Shown piece after piece: positions 4,974 to 60,858 of a stretch of 64,000 bases of DNA. Origin of the DNA: Selenomonadaceae bacterium (lineage in GTDB: Bacteria; Bacillota; Clostridia; Oscillospirales; CAG-272); contig CAVBUH010000073.1 in the NCBI GenBank assembly GCA_963598415.1, positions 131,669-195,668 on the forward strand. The letters run 5' to 3'. The position numbers were made by a program, and so were the translations under genes. A model generated the notes under the pieces. The model was not told the origin of the DNA. It saw only the letters and a list, made by a program, of their open reading frames with translations, and made no database searches. The number at the start of each line of letters is the position of its first letter. Positions within the stretch are counted from its first letter, which is position 1.

Positions 4974-5474
4974 TCATACGCTTGCACGGAGCTTCAGCTC
5001 GGAGGCGAAATCCTCTCCGCACTGGATGCGCACAGATGACAGTTCTCCGTTTGTCTCAAAAAGCAGAATATAGGATTCTGCCGGAAACATATCGGCGCAA
5101 AAATTCATTCGTGACGAGAGATGACCGTATTCTTCCTTTAAATTCTTGGACTTTGTATACGGAATAACAGCGGTCATATTTTTCAGATTAAGTGTGAGAA
5201 CGGAAAAACGCTTTTTTCCCTGTGTTCTGATAATGGTCATTCTGTTTCTTTTTAAGATTTCATCAGCCGGATCGAGGATGTACTCATATCCCGAAAGCAG
5301 ATACCGCTGAGAAATTTGAATGACGGCTACCAAGGAGGCGAGCATAAGAATCTGCCATATTCCTCTCCATCCGATTTCAAGAGAGGAAAAAATTCCGCAC
5401 AGAAGCGCGAGAAGGAAGAAAAGTACGCATACTACCTTTGCCGTTCCGCGGCGGCGCAAACAAATGTATGTCAT
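4974..5474 (-). CDS. hypothetical membrane protein (two TM helices plus soluble C-terminal domain)
   Basis: 166 aa. ATGA start/stop overlap with the upstream phosphoesterase gene suggests translational coupling. Confidence 0.55.
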   Translation of the reverse strand: MTYICLRRRGTAKVVCVLFFLLALLCGIFSSLEIGWRGIWQILMLASLVAVIQISQRYLLSGYEYILDPADEILKRNRMTIIRTQGKKRFSVLTLNLKNMTAVIPYTKSKNLKEEYGHLSSRMNFCADMFPAESYILLFETNGELSSVRIQCGEDFASELKLRASV

Positions 5475-7790: not shown

Positions 7791-7830
7791 TTAAGGCAAT
7801 ACCGCCGGGTTTTGACGGTATTGCCTTAAG
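7791..7830. repeat. terminus-only mini-hairpin of the TTAAGG repeat
   Basis: TTAAGGCAATACCGCCGGGTTTTGACGGTATTGCCTTAA: the two termini are joined with no core. Confidence 0.8.
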
Positions 7831-8809: not shown

Positions 8810-8935
8810 ATTATGGGGCGCCTCTAAAAATTCACTGCCCCAATCCGGCTCGATCTGTTTTCCGTCATTAGTCGCAAAAATTCTTGACAGATGGTTACTC
8901 TGTCTGCGGAATTTTTGTTTAGACTGACGAAAAAA
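8810..8935 (+). repeat. diverged relative of the TTAAGG repeat (Y variant)
   Basis: CCGGCTCGATCTGTTTTCCGTCATTAGTCGCAAAAA aligns with CCGGCTCAATCTGTTTTTTATCATTCGTCACAAAAA at about 56010. Confidence 0.45.
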
Positions 8936-9216: not shown

Positions 9217-9262
9217 ATAATACAGATCATAAAAAAACGACCGATTTTCCTTTATGATATTA

Positions 9263-9432
9263 TTGAAAGCAACGTCGATTGGTTCACGGTTATCGTCATA
9301 ATGACACATATACTTGCCTGTTTTCCGTCATACTTCACAAACATTGTCGACTGAGGAGCTGCTCTTGTCTCCTCAATTGATATTGTCTGACAAAAAATCT
9401 GACGGGAACTGTTAGGTTTAGCAACAGTACCC
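9263..9432 (+). repeat. TTAAGG-terminus repeat, degenerate full-length copy
   Basis: Contains TTTTCCGTCATACTTCACAAACATTGTCGACTGAGGAGCTGCTCTTGTCTCCTCAATTGATATTGTCTGACAAAAAATC. Termini are decayed. Confidence 0.7.
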
Positions 9433-9516
9433 TCATTTTTTCGGCAGGACAACGAAAAATGGTAAATTGGACGTTTTTGACCGTCCCTATTTGATTTTTG
9501 TGCTTTTTCAAAGTCA

Positions 9517-9579
9517 GGATTATGAATTTTGTCCGCAAAGCCCGCCTTCGCGGAGCTTTGCACGTTAGTGCAATAGCCC
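9517..9579 (+). repeat. fragment related to the Z module
   Basis: GGATTATGAATTT...CCGCAAAGCCCGCCTTCGCGGAGC...GCACGTTAGTGC resembles the 3' part of the Z module at 38120..38210 and 60700..60800. Confidence 0.4.
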
Positions 9580-9634
9580 AATTATACTCCGGCAGGGTTG
9601 TTTTAAAATTTACATTTACTTTTTGTATTTTGAA

Positions 9635-15828: not shown

Positions 15829-16005
15829 TTAAGGCAGCACTGTGCAGTCACGGCTTGCTCCTTGATGGCATTCTGCTTGCCTGTTTCCCGTCAACTTCAC
15901 AGTTTTTGTTGGCATAGGGGCCCGCTCCTGTTTCCTCAATTTGTATCGTTTGACGAAAAATAGATCGTGCAGCTGTATTGTCAAAAACTGGCAGTATTGC
16001 CTTAA
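15829..16005 (+). repeat. TTAAGG-terminus repeat, full-length copy (subfamily 2)
   Basis: TTAAGGCAGCACTG...GGCAGTATTGCCTTAA. Lies between the E1 stop codon and the operon terminator. Confidence 0.85.
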
Positions 16006-17267: not shown

Positions 17268-18023
17268 ATGAATCTTGACAGAATTATCGCAGTCAGAAAC
17301 AATAAGACGGTTTTCAGAGACGGAGCCCGTGTTATAAAGGTTTTTGATAGCGATTTTACAAAGGCGGAAATATTAAGCGAGGCTCTTAATCAGGCGTTGG
17401 TTGAGGAGACGGGGCTTCATATTCCGGGAATTATTGAGGTAACTTCCGTGGACGGAAAATGGGCAATCGTTTCGGAATATATAAAAGGAAAAACTCTTGC
17501 TCAGCTTATGAAGGAAAATCCTTCGGAAAAAGATAGTTATATTTCTCTCATGGTAAAGCTGCAGACGGATATATTTTTGAAAACAGTGCCTACGCTTCCC
17601 AAGCTTCGGGACAAGCTGCACCGGAAAATATGCGAGGCAAAGCTTGACGCAACAGTCAGATTTGACCTGCATAATCGGCTTGACGCTATGCCGAAGCATA
17701 CCGAGCTGTGTCATGGGGATTTCAATCCCTCGAATATTACGATTGCAGAGGACGGCGTGCCCTATATTCTCGATTGGTCTCACGCTGCAGCGGGAGATGC
17801 TGCTGCCGATGTCGCACAGACTTATTTTATGCTTCTTTATGAAGGAGACAGCGGAGCGGCGGAAAAATATCTTGACCTTATTTGTTCCCAAGGCGGTATG
17901 GACAGAGAATATATAAAGAGATGGTTCCCGATTGTGGCGGCGGCCGATTCCGTAAGAGGCATGCCGGAGGAAAAAGAATTCTATTATAAGTGGGCAACGA
18001 ATTTAAAAATCGGGGAGGAATAG
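17268..18023 (+). CDS. APH/choline-kinase-fold phosphotransferase
   Basis: Catalytic loop HGDFNPSNI and ILDWSHA motif. Start set at ATG 17268, preceded by GAAAGGA. Confidence 0.75.
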   Translation: MNLDRIIAVRNNKTVFRDGARVIKVFDSDFTKAEILSEALNQALVEETGLHIPGIIEVTSVDGKWAIVSEYIKGKTLAQLMKENPSEKDSYISLMVKLQTDIFLKTVPTLPKLRDKLHRKICEAKLDATVRFDLHNRLDAMPKHTELCHGDFNPSNITIAEDGVPYILDWSHAAAGDAAADVAQTYFMLLYEGDSGAAEKYLDLICSQGGMDREYIKRWFPIVAAADSVRGMPEEKEFYYKWATNLKIGEE

Positions 18024-18029
18024 AACGGG

Positions 18030-18269
18030 ATGAAAATAACAGTATGCATCGGAAGCTCCTGTCATCTCAAGGGTTCAAGGCAGGTAGTGGAAGTATTTCA
18101 GCGCCTTATTGCCGAAAACGGTCTTAAGGACAGAGTAGAGCTTAACGGAACCTTTTGTATGGGAGATTGCCGCTGCGGAGTTTGTATTACGATCGACGGC
18201 GAAAGGCTGTCGGTAAGTCCAGACACTGCCGAAGCGGTTTTTAACGAAAGAGTTCTTGCCGGGCTATAA
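18030..18269 (+). CDS. thioredoxin-like [2Fe-2S] ferredoxin (NuoE/HydC-like)
   Basis: 79 aa. Cys pattern CIGSSC...CMGDC (C-x4-C ... C-x3-C). Confidence 0.7.
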   Translation: MKITVCIGSSCHLKGSRQVVEVFQRLIAENGLKDRVELNGTFCMGDCRCGVCITIDGERLSVSPDTAEAVFNERVLAGL

Positions 18270-18307
18270 AGTGGGAACCGATTTTTGATTATTCAGAGGA
18301 AAAGAAT

Positions 18308-18565
18308 ATGATGATTATCATGATTTGCGTAGGAAGCTCCTGTTGTCTGAAGGGCTCCTACGAGTTGATCGAGCTTTTCAAGGCGGCAATTGCGTCTTAT
18401 GCGCTTGATGACGAAGTCACGCTCGCCGGCAATTTCTGCACCGGAAATTGCAATAGGGTGGGGGTGACAATACAGATAGATGATAAAATATATACGGGAA
18501 TAACCCCGGCGGGTTTTGACGTCTTTTTTAAAGAGCACGTTCTCAAACCTCTCGGAAGAGTTTGA
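18308..18565 (+). CDS. thioredoxin-like [2Fe-2S] ferredoxin (second copy)
   Basis: 85 aa paralog of 18030..18269 with CVGSSC...CTGNC. Confidence 0.7.
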   Translation: MMIIMICVGSSCCLKGSYELIELFKAAIASYALDDEVTLAGNFCTGNCNRVGVTIQIDDKIYTGITPAGFDVFFKEHVLKPLGRV

Positions 18566-33098: not shown

Positions 33099-33275
33099 TT
33101 AAGGAAATACTATTGGAGTACGGCTTGCGTCTTGACGGCATATCTGCTTGTTCATTTTCCGTCACACTTCATAAAATTCGTCGGCAGAGTAGCCTCTCTT
33201 GCCTTCTCATTTTGTATCGTTGATGGAAAATATGACTTCGCATCTGTATCGTCAGAACCCGGCGGTATTGCCATA
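33099..33275 (+). repeat. TTAAGG-terminus repeat, full-length copy (subfamily 2, decayed termini)
   Basis: TTAAGGAAATAC...CCCGGCGGTATTGCCATAA. Core CATTTTCCGTCACACTTCATAAAATTCGTCGGCAGAG. Confidence 0.8.
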
Positions 33276-33757
33276 AATGAAGCATTAAAGCGAAAGAACA
33301 CTTGTCTCTGCTTTTCGTGATGTTCTTAACGGATAGTGGGTAGCCGGAAGGTATAAAAACCTTCCGGCTGCTGCTTTGGCACCTATGTTTTTCTTGTGTT
33401 ACGGTACTTTTGTGGATTCTCTGCTCCTAAAGTGCCCTCTTGCTCTTAATGATGGTACTACTTCGGAGAAAAAGCAAAAATGTCGAAAAAAACTTGTGCG
33501 GTCGGCAACGCCGTCCGATGTGAGCCGAGTCGAGAGGCGTTTGCGCCCCGACTCTTTCTCCTGCTTGATTTTCAACCCAATAAAAAGCTTGAAAAGTTAC
33601 CGCAAATCTTTCAAAATCCCCCTTGGCTAACCTCGTTCTCAAATCGCCCGGAATAGGCGTTTTTCTTTTTGGTTGTTTGTCGTTTCGCTTTTCCCGGTAC
33701 ACGGGCAACACGAGGAATATCTACAGTGTTGGCTTTGTTTTTTTCTTTGGAAGGCAA

Positions 33758-37988: not shown

Positions 37989-38028
37989 GAGGCGGAATGA
38001 ATATTCGGGAAATGAATCAAAAAATAAC

Positions 38029-38351
38029 GGGCTGTTGCGTTAAGCAACAAGCCCGGCATCTTCCCGGTTGGGAAACCGGGAAGATGCCGAATCGGGTGTT
38101 TTTGACTGTATTTTCTTTGGATTATTATGAATTTAAATGGTCAAAATTACGGATTTCATCCGCAAAACCCGACTTCGTGGGGCAGTCGCACTAACGTGCT
38201 ACTGCCCCTTGATCCTGCATAAATGGGTTCGTATGAATTTTATTTTGTATCCGAAAACAGAAAATATGACAATTCGGCATTTTCATCAACTGCCGCTGTA
38301 AGAGCATCAAAGCCAGATGTGAATTGTGAAAATTCCGCAGTATTGCCTTAA
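38029..38351 (+). repeat. composite element: 154-nt Z module plus TTAAGG-repeat right terminus
   Basis: 38029..38182 differs at only 6 positions from 60616..60769 in my hand alignment. It ends ...CCGCAGTATTGCCTTAA at 38351. Confidence 0.8.
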
Positions 38352-38824: not shown

Positions 38825-39005
38825 TAAGGCAACACCGTTGGATTCACGGCTTGCGCCTTGATTGCAATCTGCTTGCCCGTTTCTCGCCATTACTTCAAAA
38901 GTGCCTTCGGCAGAGGAATCGCGCTTGCTTCCTCAATTTGTATCGTCTGATGAAAAGTATGACTGTGCATCTGTATCCCATCAGAATCCGTCGGTATTGC
39001 CTTAA
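38825..39005 (+). repeat. TTAAGG-terminus repeat, full-length copy (subfamily 2)
   Basis: TAAGGCAACACCGTTGGATTC...GAATCCGTCGGTATTGCCTTAA (about 25 nt inverted termini). Central stem GAGGAA/TTCCTC. Confidence 0.85.
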
Positions 39006-41413: not shown

Positions 41414-41465
41414 TTAAGGTCATGCCGCCAAGGCGCAAGCCGTGAACCCGGTGGTGTTACCTTAA
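41414..41465 (-). repeat. truncated TTAAGG repeat (one end only, about 50 nt)
   Basis: CCAAGGCGCAAGCCGTGAACCCGGTGGTGTTACCTTAA matches the reverse complement of the left arm of the copy at 38825. Confidence 0.65.
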
Positions 41466-41529
41466 GTTCCTGGCTGCCGTTTTATGCGTCGGTCTTATTG
41501 AAAAACGATCTGATAAAAGGATTGGGTTT

Positions 41530-45996: not shown

Positions 45997-46403
45997 ATGT
46001 CTACTGAACAAGTCAAAAAAGCGGCTGCTATGAGGTATTCAGAGCATTTTTGACTTGTCTAAGTGCAAGGTTTTTAAGGCAATACTGCCGGGTGCACAGC
46101 TAACGCCTTTATTGCGCATTTGCTTGCATCTTTTCCGTCATACTTCACAAATTTCGTCGGCAGAGGAGTCACTCTTGCCTCCTCAATTTGTATTGTCTGA
46201 CGAAAAATCCGGCGGCGCGACTGCACAATAACCATTGTGCGGTATTGCCTTAAAAACCTTGCACTTAGGTGTTGCGTTTTCATGAAATCAGTAGTTCATC
46301 AAGGAATATCTGCCCCATATAAAAACATTATATACTGCTGTTTTTATATGGGGTATGGCTTTGCCACGCCAATCATTCGCAAAGCGAATGATTCAGTAGA
46401 CAT
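45997..46403. repeat. second palindromic repeat family copy carrying a nested TTAAGG repeat
   Basis: ATGTCTACTGAA at 45997..46008 and TTCAGTAGACAT at 46392..46403. The interior is a chain of perfect hairpins with the 180-nt element inserted into one of them. Confidence 0.55.
46074..46253 (+). repeat. TTAAGG-terminus imperfect-palindrome repeat, full-length type copy (subfamily 1)
   Basis: TTAAGGCAATACTGCCGG...core CTTTTCCGTCATACTTCACAAATTTCGTCGGCAGAGGAG-N10-CTCCTCAATTTGTATTGTCTGACGAAAAATC...GTGCGGTATTGCCTTAA. Flanked by the perfect inverted repeat CTAAGTGCAAGGTTT / AAACCTTGCACTTAG. Confidence 0.9.
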
Positions 46404-51268: not shown

Positions 51269-51446
51269 TTAAGGTAATACCGCACAATGATTATTGTACA
51301 GTTGCGCCGCCAGATTTTTCATCAGGCAAACAAATTGAGGAGGTAAGAGCGACGCCTCTGCCGATAAAATTTGTGAAGTATGACGGAAAAGACGCGAGCA
51401 ATTGCGCAATGAAGGAGTTAGCCGTGCTCCGTTGGTGTTGCCTTAA
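51269..51446 (-). repeat. TTAAGG-terminus repeat, full-length copy (subfamily 1, only inverted-orientation copy)
   Basis: TTAAGGTAATACCGCACAATGATTATTGT...GAGGAGGTAAGAGCGACGCCTCTGCCGATAAAATTTGTGAAGTATGACGGAAAAG...GTTGGTGTTGCCTTAA. Confidence 0.85.
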
Positions 51447-51533: not shown

Positions 51534-51582
51534 TTAAGGCAACACCGACGGGGCACAGTGGTGCTGTCTTAAGTATATAGTA
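51534..51582. repeat. terminus-only mini-hairpin of the TTAAGG repeat
   Basis: TTAAGGCAACACCGACGGGGCACAGTGGTGCTGTCTTAA. Confidence 0.65.
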
Positions 51583-52696: not shown

Positions 52697-53719
52697 ATGA
52701 GCATTGAAAAAAAGCTGTTCGGACTTTACGGCTGCAAAGAGGTTTTTGCTTATACTCTTAAGAACAGAAACGGAGCGTATGTAACGATACTTACCTATGG
52801 CGGTATTATGAACCGTCTTTATGTTCCTGACAGAGAAGGGAAGCTTTCGGACATCGTCTGCGGCTTTGACAGTGTTGAGGACTATATTGCCGACCGTGCC
52901 AGCTATACCGGCTCTATTATCGGAAGGTATGGCAACAGGATTTCCGGCGGCGGCTTTGAACTGAACGGAAAAAGATATGCAGTGGCGCTTAATGAGAACG
53001 GAAAATGCCATCTCCACGGCGGGAATGTCGGCTTCAATCGTCGACTTTGGGACGCTGAAATGTTTCCCGGAAACGGTGAGGATCGGTTAGCGCTTACGCT
53101 TTTTTCGCCTGACGGTGAAGAGGGATATCCCGGAAATCTTTTCGTAAAAGTGACCTATACCTTTGATGACTCCAATGCGCTTACCATACATTATGAGGCG
53201 GATACCGACTGCGACACGGTTCTTAATATGACAAGCCATACCTATTACAATTTGAACGGCTATGACGGAGGCTCCGTTATGGAGCAGGAGCTTTTTATTG
53301 ACGCTGACAGTTACGACGAAGTGAACGAGCTTCTTGTACCGACAGGAACACCGGTTTCTGTCGCGGGAACCGACTTTGATTTCAGAAAGATGCGTCCGAT
53401 ATCGCGTGGATATGACCATAATTTTGTTCTCAATGGAAGAAATGGGGAGCTTCGTCTTGCAGCAAAGGCTTATGATCCGAAATCCGGGCGTACGCTCACG
53501 CTCTATACCGATCTTCCGGCCGTTCAGCTTTATACTGCGGTGGGAATGAACGGAAAGACAAACTTTAAGGGCGGAGTGCCGCAGAGACTTCTTCATGCTT
53601 TTTGTCTTGAGACTCAATACAGTCCCGATACCCCCAACCGTCCCTACATGCCTCAGTGTGTGGTAAAAGCGGGGGAAAAGTACGATACCGTTACTAAATT
53701 GGTTTTTGGAATTAAGTAA
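52697..53719 (+). CDS. galM: aldose 1-epimerase (galactose mutarotase)
   Basis: 340 aa. GRYGNRI, HLHGG and FCLETQ motifs of the mutarotase family. Confidence 0.92.
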   Translation: MSIEKKLFGLYGCKEVFAYTLKNRNGAYVTILTYGGIMNRLYVPDREGKLSDIVCGFDSVEDYIADRASYTGSIIGRYGNRISGGGFELNGKRYAVALNENGKCHLHGGNVGFNRRLWDAEMFPGNGEDRLALTLFSPDGEEGYPGNLFVKVTYTFDDSNALTIHYEADTDCDTVLNMTSHTYYNLNGYDGGSVMEQELFIDADSYDEVNELLVPTGTPVSVAGTDFDFRKMRPISRGYDHNFVLNGRNGELRLAAKAYDPKSGRTLTLYTDLPAVQLYTAVGMNGKTNFKGGVPQRLLHAFCLETQYSPDTPNRPYMPQCVVKAGEKYDTVTKLVFGIK

Positions 53720-53768
53720 GAAAATCAAAAAGGGTGAATGTAGATTTGCTTTCACTTGTTAAAAATAT

Positions 53769-53816
53769 CCTCGCCTTTCGACAGTTTAACCGCTTTCCGA
53801 AGGCGAGGCTTTTTTT
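53769..53816 (+). terminator. galM terminator
   Basis: CCTCGCCTT...AAGGCGAGG followed by CTTTTTTT. Confidence 0.75.
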
Positions 53817-53993
53817 AGGCAGCACCGTCGGATTCACGGCTAACGCCTTTGCTGCGCATATGCTTGCATCTATTCCGTCAACCTTCACAAATTTCGTCGG
53901 CAGAGGAGTCACTCTTGCCTCCTCAATTGGTATTGTCTGACGAAAAATCTGGCGGCGCAACTGCACAACAATCATTGTGTGATATTGCCTTAA
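53815..53993 (+). repeat. TTAAGG-terminus repeat, full-length copy (subfamily 1)
   Basis: Starts TTAGGCAGCACCG (one A lost), ends GTGATATTGCCTTAA. Immediately follows the galM terminator. Confidence 0.85.
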
Positions 53994-54051
53994 ATTTATA
54001 CCACCTTTTCCCGAATATTCTACAAGCAATCATCGTTGTAATATGATAAAA

Positions 54052-54227
54052 TTAAGGCAATACCGCTGGGTGCACAGCTAACGCCTTTATGGGTATTTGC
54101 TTGCATCTATTCCGTCAACCTTCACAAATTTTGTCGGCAGAGGAGTCCTCTTGCTTCCTCAATTTGATTGTCTGACGAAAAATCTGGCGGCGCAACCGCA
54201 CAACAATCATTGTGTGGTATTGTCTTC
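54052..54227 (+). repeat. TTAAGG-terminus repeat, full-length copy (subfamily 1, decayed right end)
   Basis: TTAAGGCAATACCGCTGGGTGCACAGC...GTGTGGTATTGTCTTCA. Lies 58 nt after the previous copy. Confidence 0.8.
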
Positions 54228-60519: not shown

Positions 60520-60858
60520 TTAAGGCATACCGCACAATTACCTGCTTGCATATTTTCCGACATTCGTCACAAAAAATAACGCAATAGGAGCCGCTATTGC
60601 TTGTATTTTTTGTGCGGGCTGTTGCGTTAAGCAACAAGCCCGGCATTTTCCCGGTCAGGAAACCGGGAAAATGCCGAATCGGGTGTTTTTGACTGTATTT
60701 TCTTTGGATTATTATGAATTTAAATGGTCAAAATTGCGGATTTCATCCGCAAAATCCGACTTCGTGGGGCTGTTGTCGCACGTTAGTGAGACTGCCCCCT
60801 GAATCCCGAAAAATCTGACGGCGCATCTGTACTGTCATAACCGGCGGTATTGCCTTAA
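60520..60858 (+). repeat. composite element: TTAAGG termini enclosing the Z module
   Basis: Left end TTAAGGCATACCGCACAA, internal GGGCTGTTGCGTTAAGCAACAAGCCC and GGCATTTTCCCGGTCAGGAAACCGGGAAAATGCC hairpins, right end CCGGCGGTATTGCCTTAA. Confidence 0.8.

Follow-up and report, generated by a model that had tools for sequence, protein, structure and literature searches.

What are the units of about 180 bp that recur between the genes of a 64,000-nucleotide stretch of the Selenomonadaceae bacterium assembly GCA_963598415.1 (contig CAVBUH010000073.1, positions 131,669 to 195,668; hereafter the window)? A preliminary description, made from the sequence alone, had listed eight full-length copies of an imperfect palindrome with TTAA at its borders, and had hesitated between a non-autonomous mobile element and a structured RNA family. 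We find that the units form a new family of miniature transposable elements with inverted repeats (MITEs), an element of a well-known type, which brings no new RNA and no new mechanism. With a probability of roughly 0.88, as judged from shared sequence features, the units are MITE copies that an ISBian1-like element of the IS5 family moves in trans through its DDE transposase. In an uncultured lineage of human-gut Clostridia the element takes up much of the space between genes, with nine copies in 64 kb, and it is found in metagenome assemblies assigned to several other Clostridia groups too.

Copies of the element in the window

An nhmmer profile built from the eight listed copies and searched against the window recovered all of them where they had been placed, with E-values from 1e-41 to 5e-58. 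The family totals nine full copies and five remnants (two minis consisting of ends only and three fragments), which gives an unusually high density of about one copy per 7 kb. The copies are as follows.

9263..9408, plus strand: copy c9263, with a degenerate left end TTGAAAGC; E 1.7e-41
15829..16005, plus strand: full copy c15829, TTAA on both sides; E 3e-44
33099..33276, plus strand: full copy c33099, right flank ATAA; E 3.2e-47
38825..39005, plus strand: full copy c38825, with the longest terminal repeat of the window, about 18-22 nt; E 7e-49
46074..46253, plus strand: full copy c46074, the index copy; E 4.7e-58
51269..51446, minus strand: full copy c51269, the only inverted copy of the window; E 8.5e-53
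53815..53993, plus strand: full copy c53815, first of a tandem pair; E 1.7e-56
54052..54227, plus strand: full copy c54052, second of the tandem pair, with a degenerate right flank, TTCA; E 2.5e-51
60520..60858, plus strand: full copy flanked by TTAA at either end and split by a nested insert into a left part, 60520-60612, and a right part, about 60803-60858

Two of these differ from how they were first drawn. The unit noted as a right-arm segment at 60808 does belong to the family, yet it is the right part of a full copy that is split by an insert at 60615-60802; nhmmer places the two halves near 60539-60602 and 60807-60858, the alignment agrees, and an unsplit paralogue lies at L196:6846-7025. 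The copy drawn at 9263..9432 is real, while position 9432 is no MITE terminus: the element stops at about 9408, where its right end is cut off by a diverged member of a second repeat family (9409-9579, identified by family search).

As described before, the copies are all intergenic. Each lies between ordinary chromosomal or housekeeping genes (PNPase, cysE/cysS, an E1 dehydrogenase, sugar kinases, two-component systems), c15829 being located between the E1 dehydrogenase gene and a LysR gene. No tRNA gene is present in the window. The only open reading frames (ORFs) that cross window copies, 9252-9581 and 53712-54029, are both on the minus strand and 105-109 amino acids long. No Pfam match is on record for the gene that related contigs show at the second of these positions, and we take both ORFs as spurious; gene callers put such spurious ORFs, of 87-110 amino acids, over copies. 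Copy c46074 lies precisely within the loop of an older, perfect hairpin of 19 bp (CTAAGTGCAAGGTTTTTAA / TTAAAAACCTTGCACTTAG, 46059-46077 and 46250-46268), found without the MITE in other strains.

Outside the window, a stricter pattern scan of metagenome contigs gave at least 120 loci; the record names that state a source are mostly those of human-gut metagenome assemblies. The 1.85 Mb of fetched loci contain 256 non-overlapping nhmmer hits, 172 of them full length, and 130 unique flanked copies. The elements measure 162-198 nt, their length distribution peaking at 170 and 180 nt, and carry terminal inverted repeats of 16-17 bp, GGCAAYACCGCRCAAT ... ATTGYGCGGTRTTGCC; past a flanking 4-mer, the surrounding sequences are not conserved. 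These terminal repeats are kept across 71 diverged copies (less than 93% identical to each other), where helix 1 is 90% paired. In the window, the two right-arm subfamilies distinguished earlier are confirmed by alignment of its copies. Core conservation is inflated by ascertainment, as both collection scans demanded core motifs, and the near-invariance of TTCCGTCA..CTTCACAAA and TCTGACGAAA is partly due to this design.

Target-site duplication and empty sites

It had been proposed that TTAA is either a target duplication or a part of the terminus. TTAA stands on both sides of 85 of the 130 unique flanked copies and, being its own reverse complement, cannot by itself tell a duplication from a terminal base pair. 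Flanks other than TTAA match directly at eight independent loci (TTAG twice, TTCA, CTAA, TAAA, TGAA, ATAA and TTTA) and never, among the 130 copies, as inverted complements. The element proper therefore spans GGCAAYACCGCRCAAT ... ATTGYGCGGTRTTGCC; TTAA is target DNA, a 4-bp target-site duplication and not a part of the terminus.

The preliminary description had also suggested searching for further copies and for empty sites, and the latter exist as well: two of them are clean. At the first, L150 (about 11500, reverse strand) reads ...GACGT TCAA ATCCGC... with a single 4-mer, and its filled counterpart in L153, L175 and L200 reads ...GACGT TTAA-[MITE]-TTAA ATCCGC.... At the second, it is the window that is empty (about 6085, ...GGCAAAAA TCAA GAC...), and L226 has TTAA-[MITE]-TTAA there. 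Both empty sites are thus TCAA and both filled alleles TTAA. This may be a matter of ascertainment, since a site that had drifted from TTAA would remain unfilled.

Related genomes are polymorphic for the presence of copies: L150 differs from L153, and the window from L226, L282, L281 and L111. Assembly GCA_964311565.1, with about 92% nucleotide identity in the flanks and the gene order kept, has no copies across 18 kb of syntenic DNA that in the window carries c15829, c51269, c53815 and c54052; c15829 is missing at its orthologous site (L282). The window segment 51123-51898, with c51269, has no counterpart in the relative L281. The latter (5133-5284) also lacks the whole segment 53816-56268, which comprises the tandem MITE pair and a gene for a 549-residue FGGY sugar kinase; the left edge of the indel falls where c53815 starts. 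Copy c46074 is missing from the same site in L111 (a strain of about 98% identity), L229 and L163.

At the other extreme, the human-gut metagenome-assembled genome (MAG) GCA_900556615.1 and contigs of sample ERZ1106976 match the window at 99.7-100% identity. Strains at least 99.7% identical share the insertions of the window, with two exceptions at the tandem pair: in L131 a single recombinant copy replaces c53815/c54052, and in L122 synteny is lost exactly at the end of c53815. The copies serve as recombination substrates, turning a tandem pair into a single copy and breaking synteny.

A presumed autonomous partner of the IS5 family

A search for an autonomous insertion sequence (IS) with the same termini, as had been advised, was successful. 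Viral contigs scanned for the terminal-repeat pattern gave 15 loci, none with the MITE interior. One of them, L266, contains at 1579-2712 an IS of 1134 bp that is flanked by TTAA at either end and has the ends GGCAACACCGCACAG / TTGCGCGGTGTTGCC. Its single ORF of 325 amino acids matches Pfam families DDE_Tnp_1 (PF01609) and DUF772 (PF05598), and scores 314 bits with the NCBIfam model NF033581, 'IS5 family transposase', whose cut-off is 140. Deleting the IS together with one TTAA restores a host ORF of 125 amino acids. Further IS copies, L267-L279 on contigs that carry two relatives of this protein, are 1134-1136 bp long, have one ORF of 321-325 amino acids and are flanked by the direct 4-bp duplications CTAA, TTAA, TTAT and TAAG. 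The ends of the partner are GGCAAYACCGCACAG...CGGTGTTGCC, read as GGCAATACCGCACAG / ...CGGTGTTGCC in the L267-L279 copies. The MITE and the IS are alike in end sequence, duplication length and target preference.

Elements of the IS5 group are about 1.1-1.2 kb long, with one ORF, repeats of about 16 bp that start with GG and a 4-bp duplication at YTAR-like targets. The IS copies fit this description in size, in their one ORF and in their 4-bp duplications; those of the MITE are mostly TTAA. By these sequence features, the partner and, through it, the MITE are assigned to the IS5 group of the IS5 family.

The L266 protein has more than 7,900 close relatives; the contigs that carry them mostly measure about 1.1-1.3 kb, as is typical when a repeat collapses in assembly. 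One of them, P0020, is 89% identical and bears the NCBI name 'IS5 family transposase ISBian1'; it is by the name of this protein that the partner is putatively identified as ISBian1-like. ISBian1 is the ISfinder name of an IS5-like element located beside tet(W) in Bifidobacterium animalis, and was also reported from a human ileal Clostridia isolate (PMC8319848).

Other candidates were considered. Inverted termini 0.4-4 kb apart in MITE-bearing loci proved to be just neighbouring MITEs, plus one 1567-bp candidate (L167, 4384-5956), rejected because its ORF of 335 amino acids was not transposase-like on inspection, no family search having been made. Separately, a truncated IS5-type transposase gene (residues 167-325, 65-69% identical to the L266 protein) is found at L213 196-777 and L157 4485-5066; it keeps its own terminal repeat and directly adjoins a MITE copy.

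Decay products and spread between genera

The window contains five remnants of the element.

7791..7829, plus strand: ends-only mini of 39 nt, TTAA GGCAATACCGCCGGG TTTTGAC GGTATTGCC TTAA, with the ends and TTAA flanks of full copies (direct reading)
8855..8934, plus strand: decayed central core without termini, model positions 55-134; nhmmer E 1.7e-5
38334..38351 (approximate), plus strand: solo right-terminus fragment CCGCAGTATTGCCTTAA (direct reading)
41422..41468, minus strand: solo left-arm fragment of about 45 nt ending in TTAA, with an inverted repeat, located between cysS and the next gene; nhmmer E 1.3e-6
51534..51572, plus strand: ends-only mini of 39 nt, TTAA GGCAACACCGACGGGGCAC AGTGGTGCTGTC TTAA (direct reading)

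Minis of 35-80 nt that share the ends exist elsewhere too, as do short elements with the same ends and TTAA flanks and other interiors (L262 2238-2440, L061 4608-4882). Both are the expected product of a transposase that recognises ends only. The sizes suggest a series of decay by internal deletion, with duplications kept, from full copies through 65-80 nt to minis of 35-44 nt. Subfamilies with other interiors also occur at the contig ends of L252, L257, L259, L261 and L263, and IMG/VR 'viral' contigs frequently have one such subfamily at their ends. Copies of the MITE are the place where many contigs begin or stop, which suggests that the MITE is one cause of broken short-read assemblies for its carriers.

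By pattern scan followed by nhmmer, genuine copies were found in MAGs labelled Acutalibacteraceae, Faecousia, Ruminococcus, Ruminiclostridium, Anaerotignum, Clostridium sp. CAG:448 and others. The scan of species-representative genomes used a loose 17-base pattern, by which most of the 109 loci were chance matches; the true members were picked out by nhmmer.

Full-length copies of 70-73% identity are also carried by four unannotated faecal 'Bacteriophage sp.' contigs (MT835489.1, MT835480.1, MT835885.1 and MT836531.1), and a right arm (partial match) by the Subdoligranulum variabile plasmid OY725837.1. Such phage contigs and plasmid are possible vehicles for the cross-genus spread. The core-motif pattern had no matches in viral contigs. 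Finally, MITE copies at L224 5657, L196 8533, L235 2692 and L231 1556 occupy the same position within another dispersed repeat of at least 140 nt, which is uninterrupted at L227 1589-1727, L227 197-326, L235 10299-10429 and L167 9491-9603. The shared position could reflect a preferred target or a composite element.

Structure of the interior

Both strands of c46074 fold far better than their shuffles (z of -6.2 and -6.75). The fold is branched and not the one long hairpin of the preliminary description: it has a terminal stem, a left-arm hairpin and a long central hairpin, with a right-arm hairpin in addition in copies of the c46074 type. A consensus structure was obtained by RNAalifold on gap-filtered columns of a MAFFT alignment, and pairs were counted on it in the set of 71 diverged copies. 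Standard pairs make up 87% of the cells, against 36-44% with slid partners; 35 of the 57 pairs change on both sides, and none of 500 shuffles reaches the observed values. The apical stem is kept between genera and species with entirely different sequences. The central stem GAGGAG/CTCCTC proposed earlier is possible in the window subfamily, where it is indistinguishable from an alternative apical pairing, GGCAGAG/CTCTTGCC, as both are about 93% paired. The covariation is there, and by itself it cannot separate DNA from RNA.

Proposed mechanism and what weighs against it

What has been observed is that MITE and IS have their ends in common, that 4 bp are duplicated, that empty sites and decay derivatives occur, and that a partner IS exists. 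On this basis we propose the following. An ISBian1-like transposase, from a resident partner that we infer for this genome, would bind both MITE ends in trans and cut the element out or copy it. Insertion would take place at a 4-bp target, preferably TTAA, which a staggered cut would duplicate. The branched palindrome could help to bring the ends together, or be maintained by hairpin-templated repair.

Several observations sit uneasily with this proposal. The interior covaries strongly, for which a purely passive MITE has no obvious need. The similarity between MITE and IS, read off their ends, is limited to about 14-17 terminal bases, so that none of the sampled IS copies would yield the MITE by simple internal deletion. 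Within the window, tblastn found no transposase related to that of L266, in line with the earlier reading, and the partner IS could not be demonstrated in the window's own genome. In addition, two of the unoccupied sites do not carry a single TTAA: that of c15829 in L282 (3861-3870) reads TTAA-TC-TTAA, and that of c46074 reads TTAA-GTTATTTTAT-TTAA in L111 (2764-2781) and L163, with the spacer GTTGATTTAC in L229. These alleles with a filler between two TTAA may be what an extreme deletion has left, footprints of excision, or indels of unrelated origin.

Such points leave some room, though we consider it unlikely, for one of two additions to the proposal. Either the interior hairpin is a functional module (a DNA structure on which a host factor or the IS5-type transposase depends, or an RNA hairpin that works in either orientation to insulate or process the transcripts of neighbours) or, separately, the filler alleles are excision footprints. 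In the latter case the MITE would exit by cut-and-paste with end joining, which is rarely documented in bacteria.

Alternative readings

The units might instead be structured non-coding RNA genes or cis-regulatory RNAs, with the 180-nt fold as their functional product. The folding of both strands beyond shuffles, the high fraction of paired cells with its double-sided changes, and the apical stem kept across genera are what speaks for it. The orientation of the copies does not: relative to neighbour genes it is random among 129 unique copies (30 sense-tandem, 24 antisense-tandem, 29 divergent, 20 convergent), and it is independent of GC skew and of the majority coding strand. The common direction of eight of the nine window copies, correctly noted before, is a local bias. 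Nor is one strand favoured by the mismatches, with 233 G·U cells against 214 A·C cells, an A·C being a G·U on the other strand. Rfam 15 gives no match at gathering threshold across the whole window, and only chance-level hits in the permissive E-value mode; neither a promoter-like nor a terminator-like site turned up within c46074 or next to it. Owing to the random orientation, the symmetric G·U and A·C counts and the missing Rfam match, the structure looks like one of DNA, and we take the interior pairing as a DNA-level property kept equally on both strands, not as that of a strand-specific RNA. With the target duplications, empty sites, ends-only minis and partner IS all pointing to a transposon, an RNA family, one of the identities put forward in the preliminary description, is very improbable.

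Less credible still is a TA-duplicating MITE of IS630/Tc1-mariner type, comparable to Correia or RUP, the outer T and A of TTAA being just preferred context. It would account for the TA at the centre of TTAA, and the size and hairpin shape do resemble those of Correia, RUP and ERIC. The 4-bp direct repeats refute a duplication of TA only: the matched flanks TGAA/TGAA and TTCA/TTCA have no central TA, all four bases are duplicated in CTAA, TTAG, TAAA and ATAA, and the autonomous element that shares these ends encodes a transposase of the IS5 family and makes 4-bp duplications that include TTAT and TAAG.

Equally far-fetched is a palindrome of REP/BIME type, or derived from IS200/IS605, moved as single-stranded DNA by a Y1 (HUH) transposase. 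An extensive palindrome whose structure is symmetric at the DNA level would agree with that. REP/BIME and IS200/IS605-derived elements are without inverted repeats at their termini, leave the target unduplicated and have a Y1 transposase as partner. Here, terminal repeats and target duplication are present and the enzyme of the partner is of DDE type.

A small protein-coding gene or gene fragment can be dismissed: the plus-strand frames do contain somewhat few stop codons (about one per frame) and the spurious ORFs of 105-109 amino acids cross two window copies, but a frame-by-frame count finds no frame open in more than 21 of the 71 copies, the cross-genus copies examined have no open frame at all, no conserved frame with dN/dS below 1 was seen across copies, and length differences are not multiples of three, as noticed before (lengths modulo 3 spread 28/25/18).

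A second repeat family and other repeats

The repeat that interrupts the MITE at 60520..60858 belongs to a second family of about 186 nt, unrelated to the MITE. Its members are the following.

38028-38212: window copy
60615-60802, plus strand: window copy of 188 nt, nested in the split MITE and 96% identical to 38028-38212
9409-9579: diverged window copy, adjoining c9263
L161 7204-7383, and several contig ends: copies outside the window

The nested insert marks the MITE copy as a passive target. Two of the three window copies of this second family lie inside or against MITEs, one splitting the copy at 60520 and the other cutting short c9263. The family has four strong hairpins, with a minimum free energy of about -93 kcal/mol; no obvious terminal inverted repeats or target duplication were noticed, and the member 38028-38212 had no hit in an E-value-mode Rfam search. 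In its 3' hairpin (38170-38200 versus 60770-60800) the stem is kept and the loop reverse-complemented, GTCGCAC-TAAC-GTGCTAC versus GTTGCAC-GTTA-GTGCGAC; it looks as if the terminal hairpin had been flipped between copies.

A direct repeat of 62 nt with 73% identity (18015-18076 and 18296-18357) corresponds to the starts of two adjacent small 2Fe-2S thioredoxin-like genes. It is probably a tandem gene duplication unrelated to the MITE.

Consequences and comparison with known systems

The family is notable for its density, its spread across genera and its maintained palindromic interior. Its copies accumulate solely between genes, are hit by other repeats and decay to ends-only minis. They coincide with strain-level rearrangements, and their insertion polymorphisms could be used for strain tracking. 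The link to ISBian1-like elements supplies a mobilising enzyme that can be tested.

We found no prior description of this MITE family in the searched literature, ISfinder and Dfam being outside that comparison. Prokaryotic MITEs are described as having direct repeats, terminal inverted repeats and a non-coding core, with roles in genome plasticity; the same 2024 review mentions neither MITEs of gut Clostridia or Firmicutes nor a TTAA target (PMC10969869). The present family fits this generic architecture and, at the level of sequence, has every feature that membership of the bacterial MITE class calls for. Its earlier classification as a MITE-like non-autonomous element is borne out by the 4-bp duplication, the 16-17-bp repeats and the IS5-family partner.

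Among the closest known systems are the ISBian1-like IS5 elements, the presumed autonomous partner. In both, the ends start with GGCAAYACCGC and finish with GCGGTRTTGCC, a direct 4-bp duplication is made at TTAA-like sites, and the carriers are human-gut bacteria. They differ in that the MITE is non-coding and 170-180 bp long, whereas the IS has 1134-1136 bp and a transposase, with no detectable similarity of the interiors past the terminal 14-17 bases.

Correia elements of Neisseria, ERIC/IRU of enterobacteria and RUP of Streptococcus pneumoniae either duplicate TA or have no known partner of IS5 type. Compared by general description rather than by sequence, they share with this family the character of short, multicopy, intergenic imperfect palindromes with terminal repeats and long hairpins; the likeness to ERIC suggested at first is an analogy of shape and nothing beyond that. 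What sets the present family apart from all three is its 4-bp duplication, its IS5-family partner and its host among the gut Clostridia.

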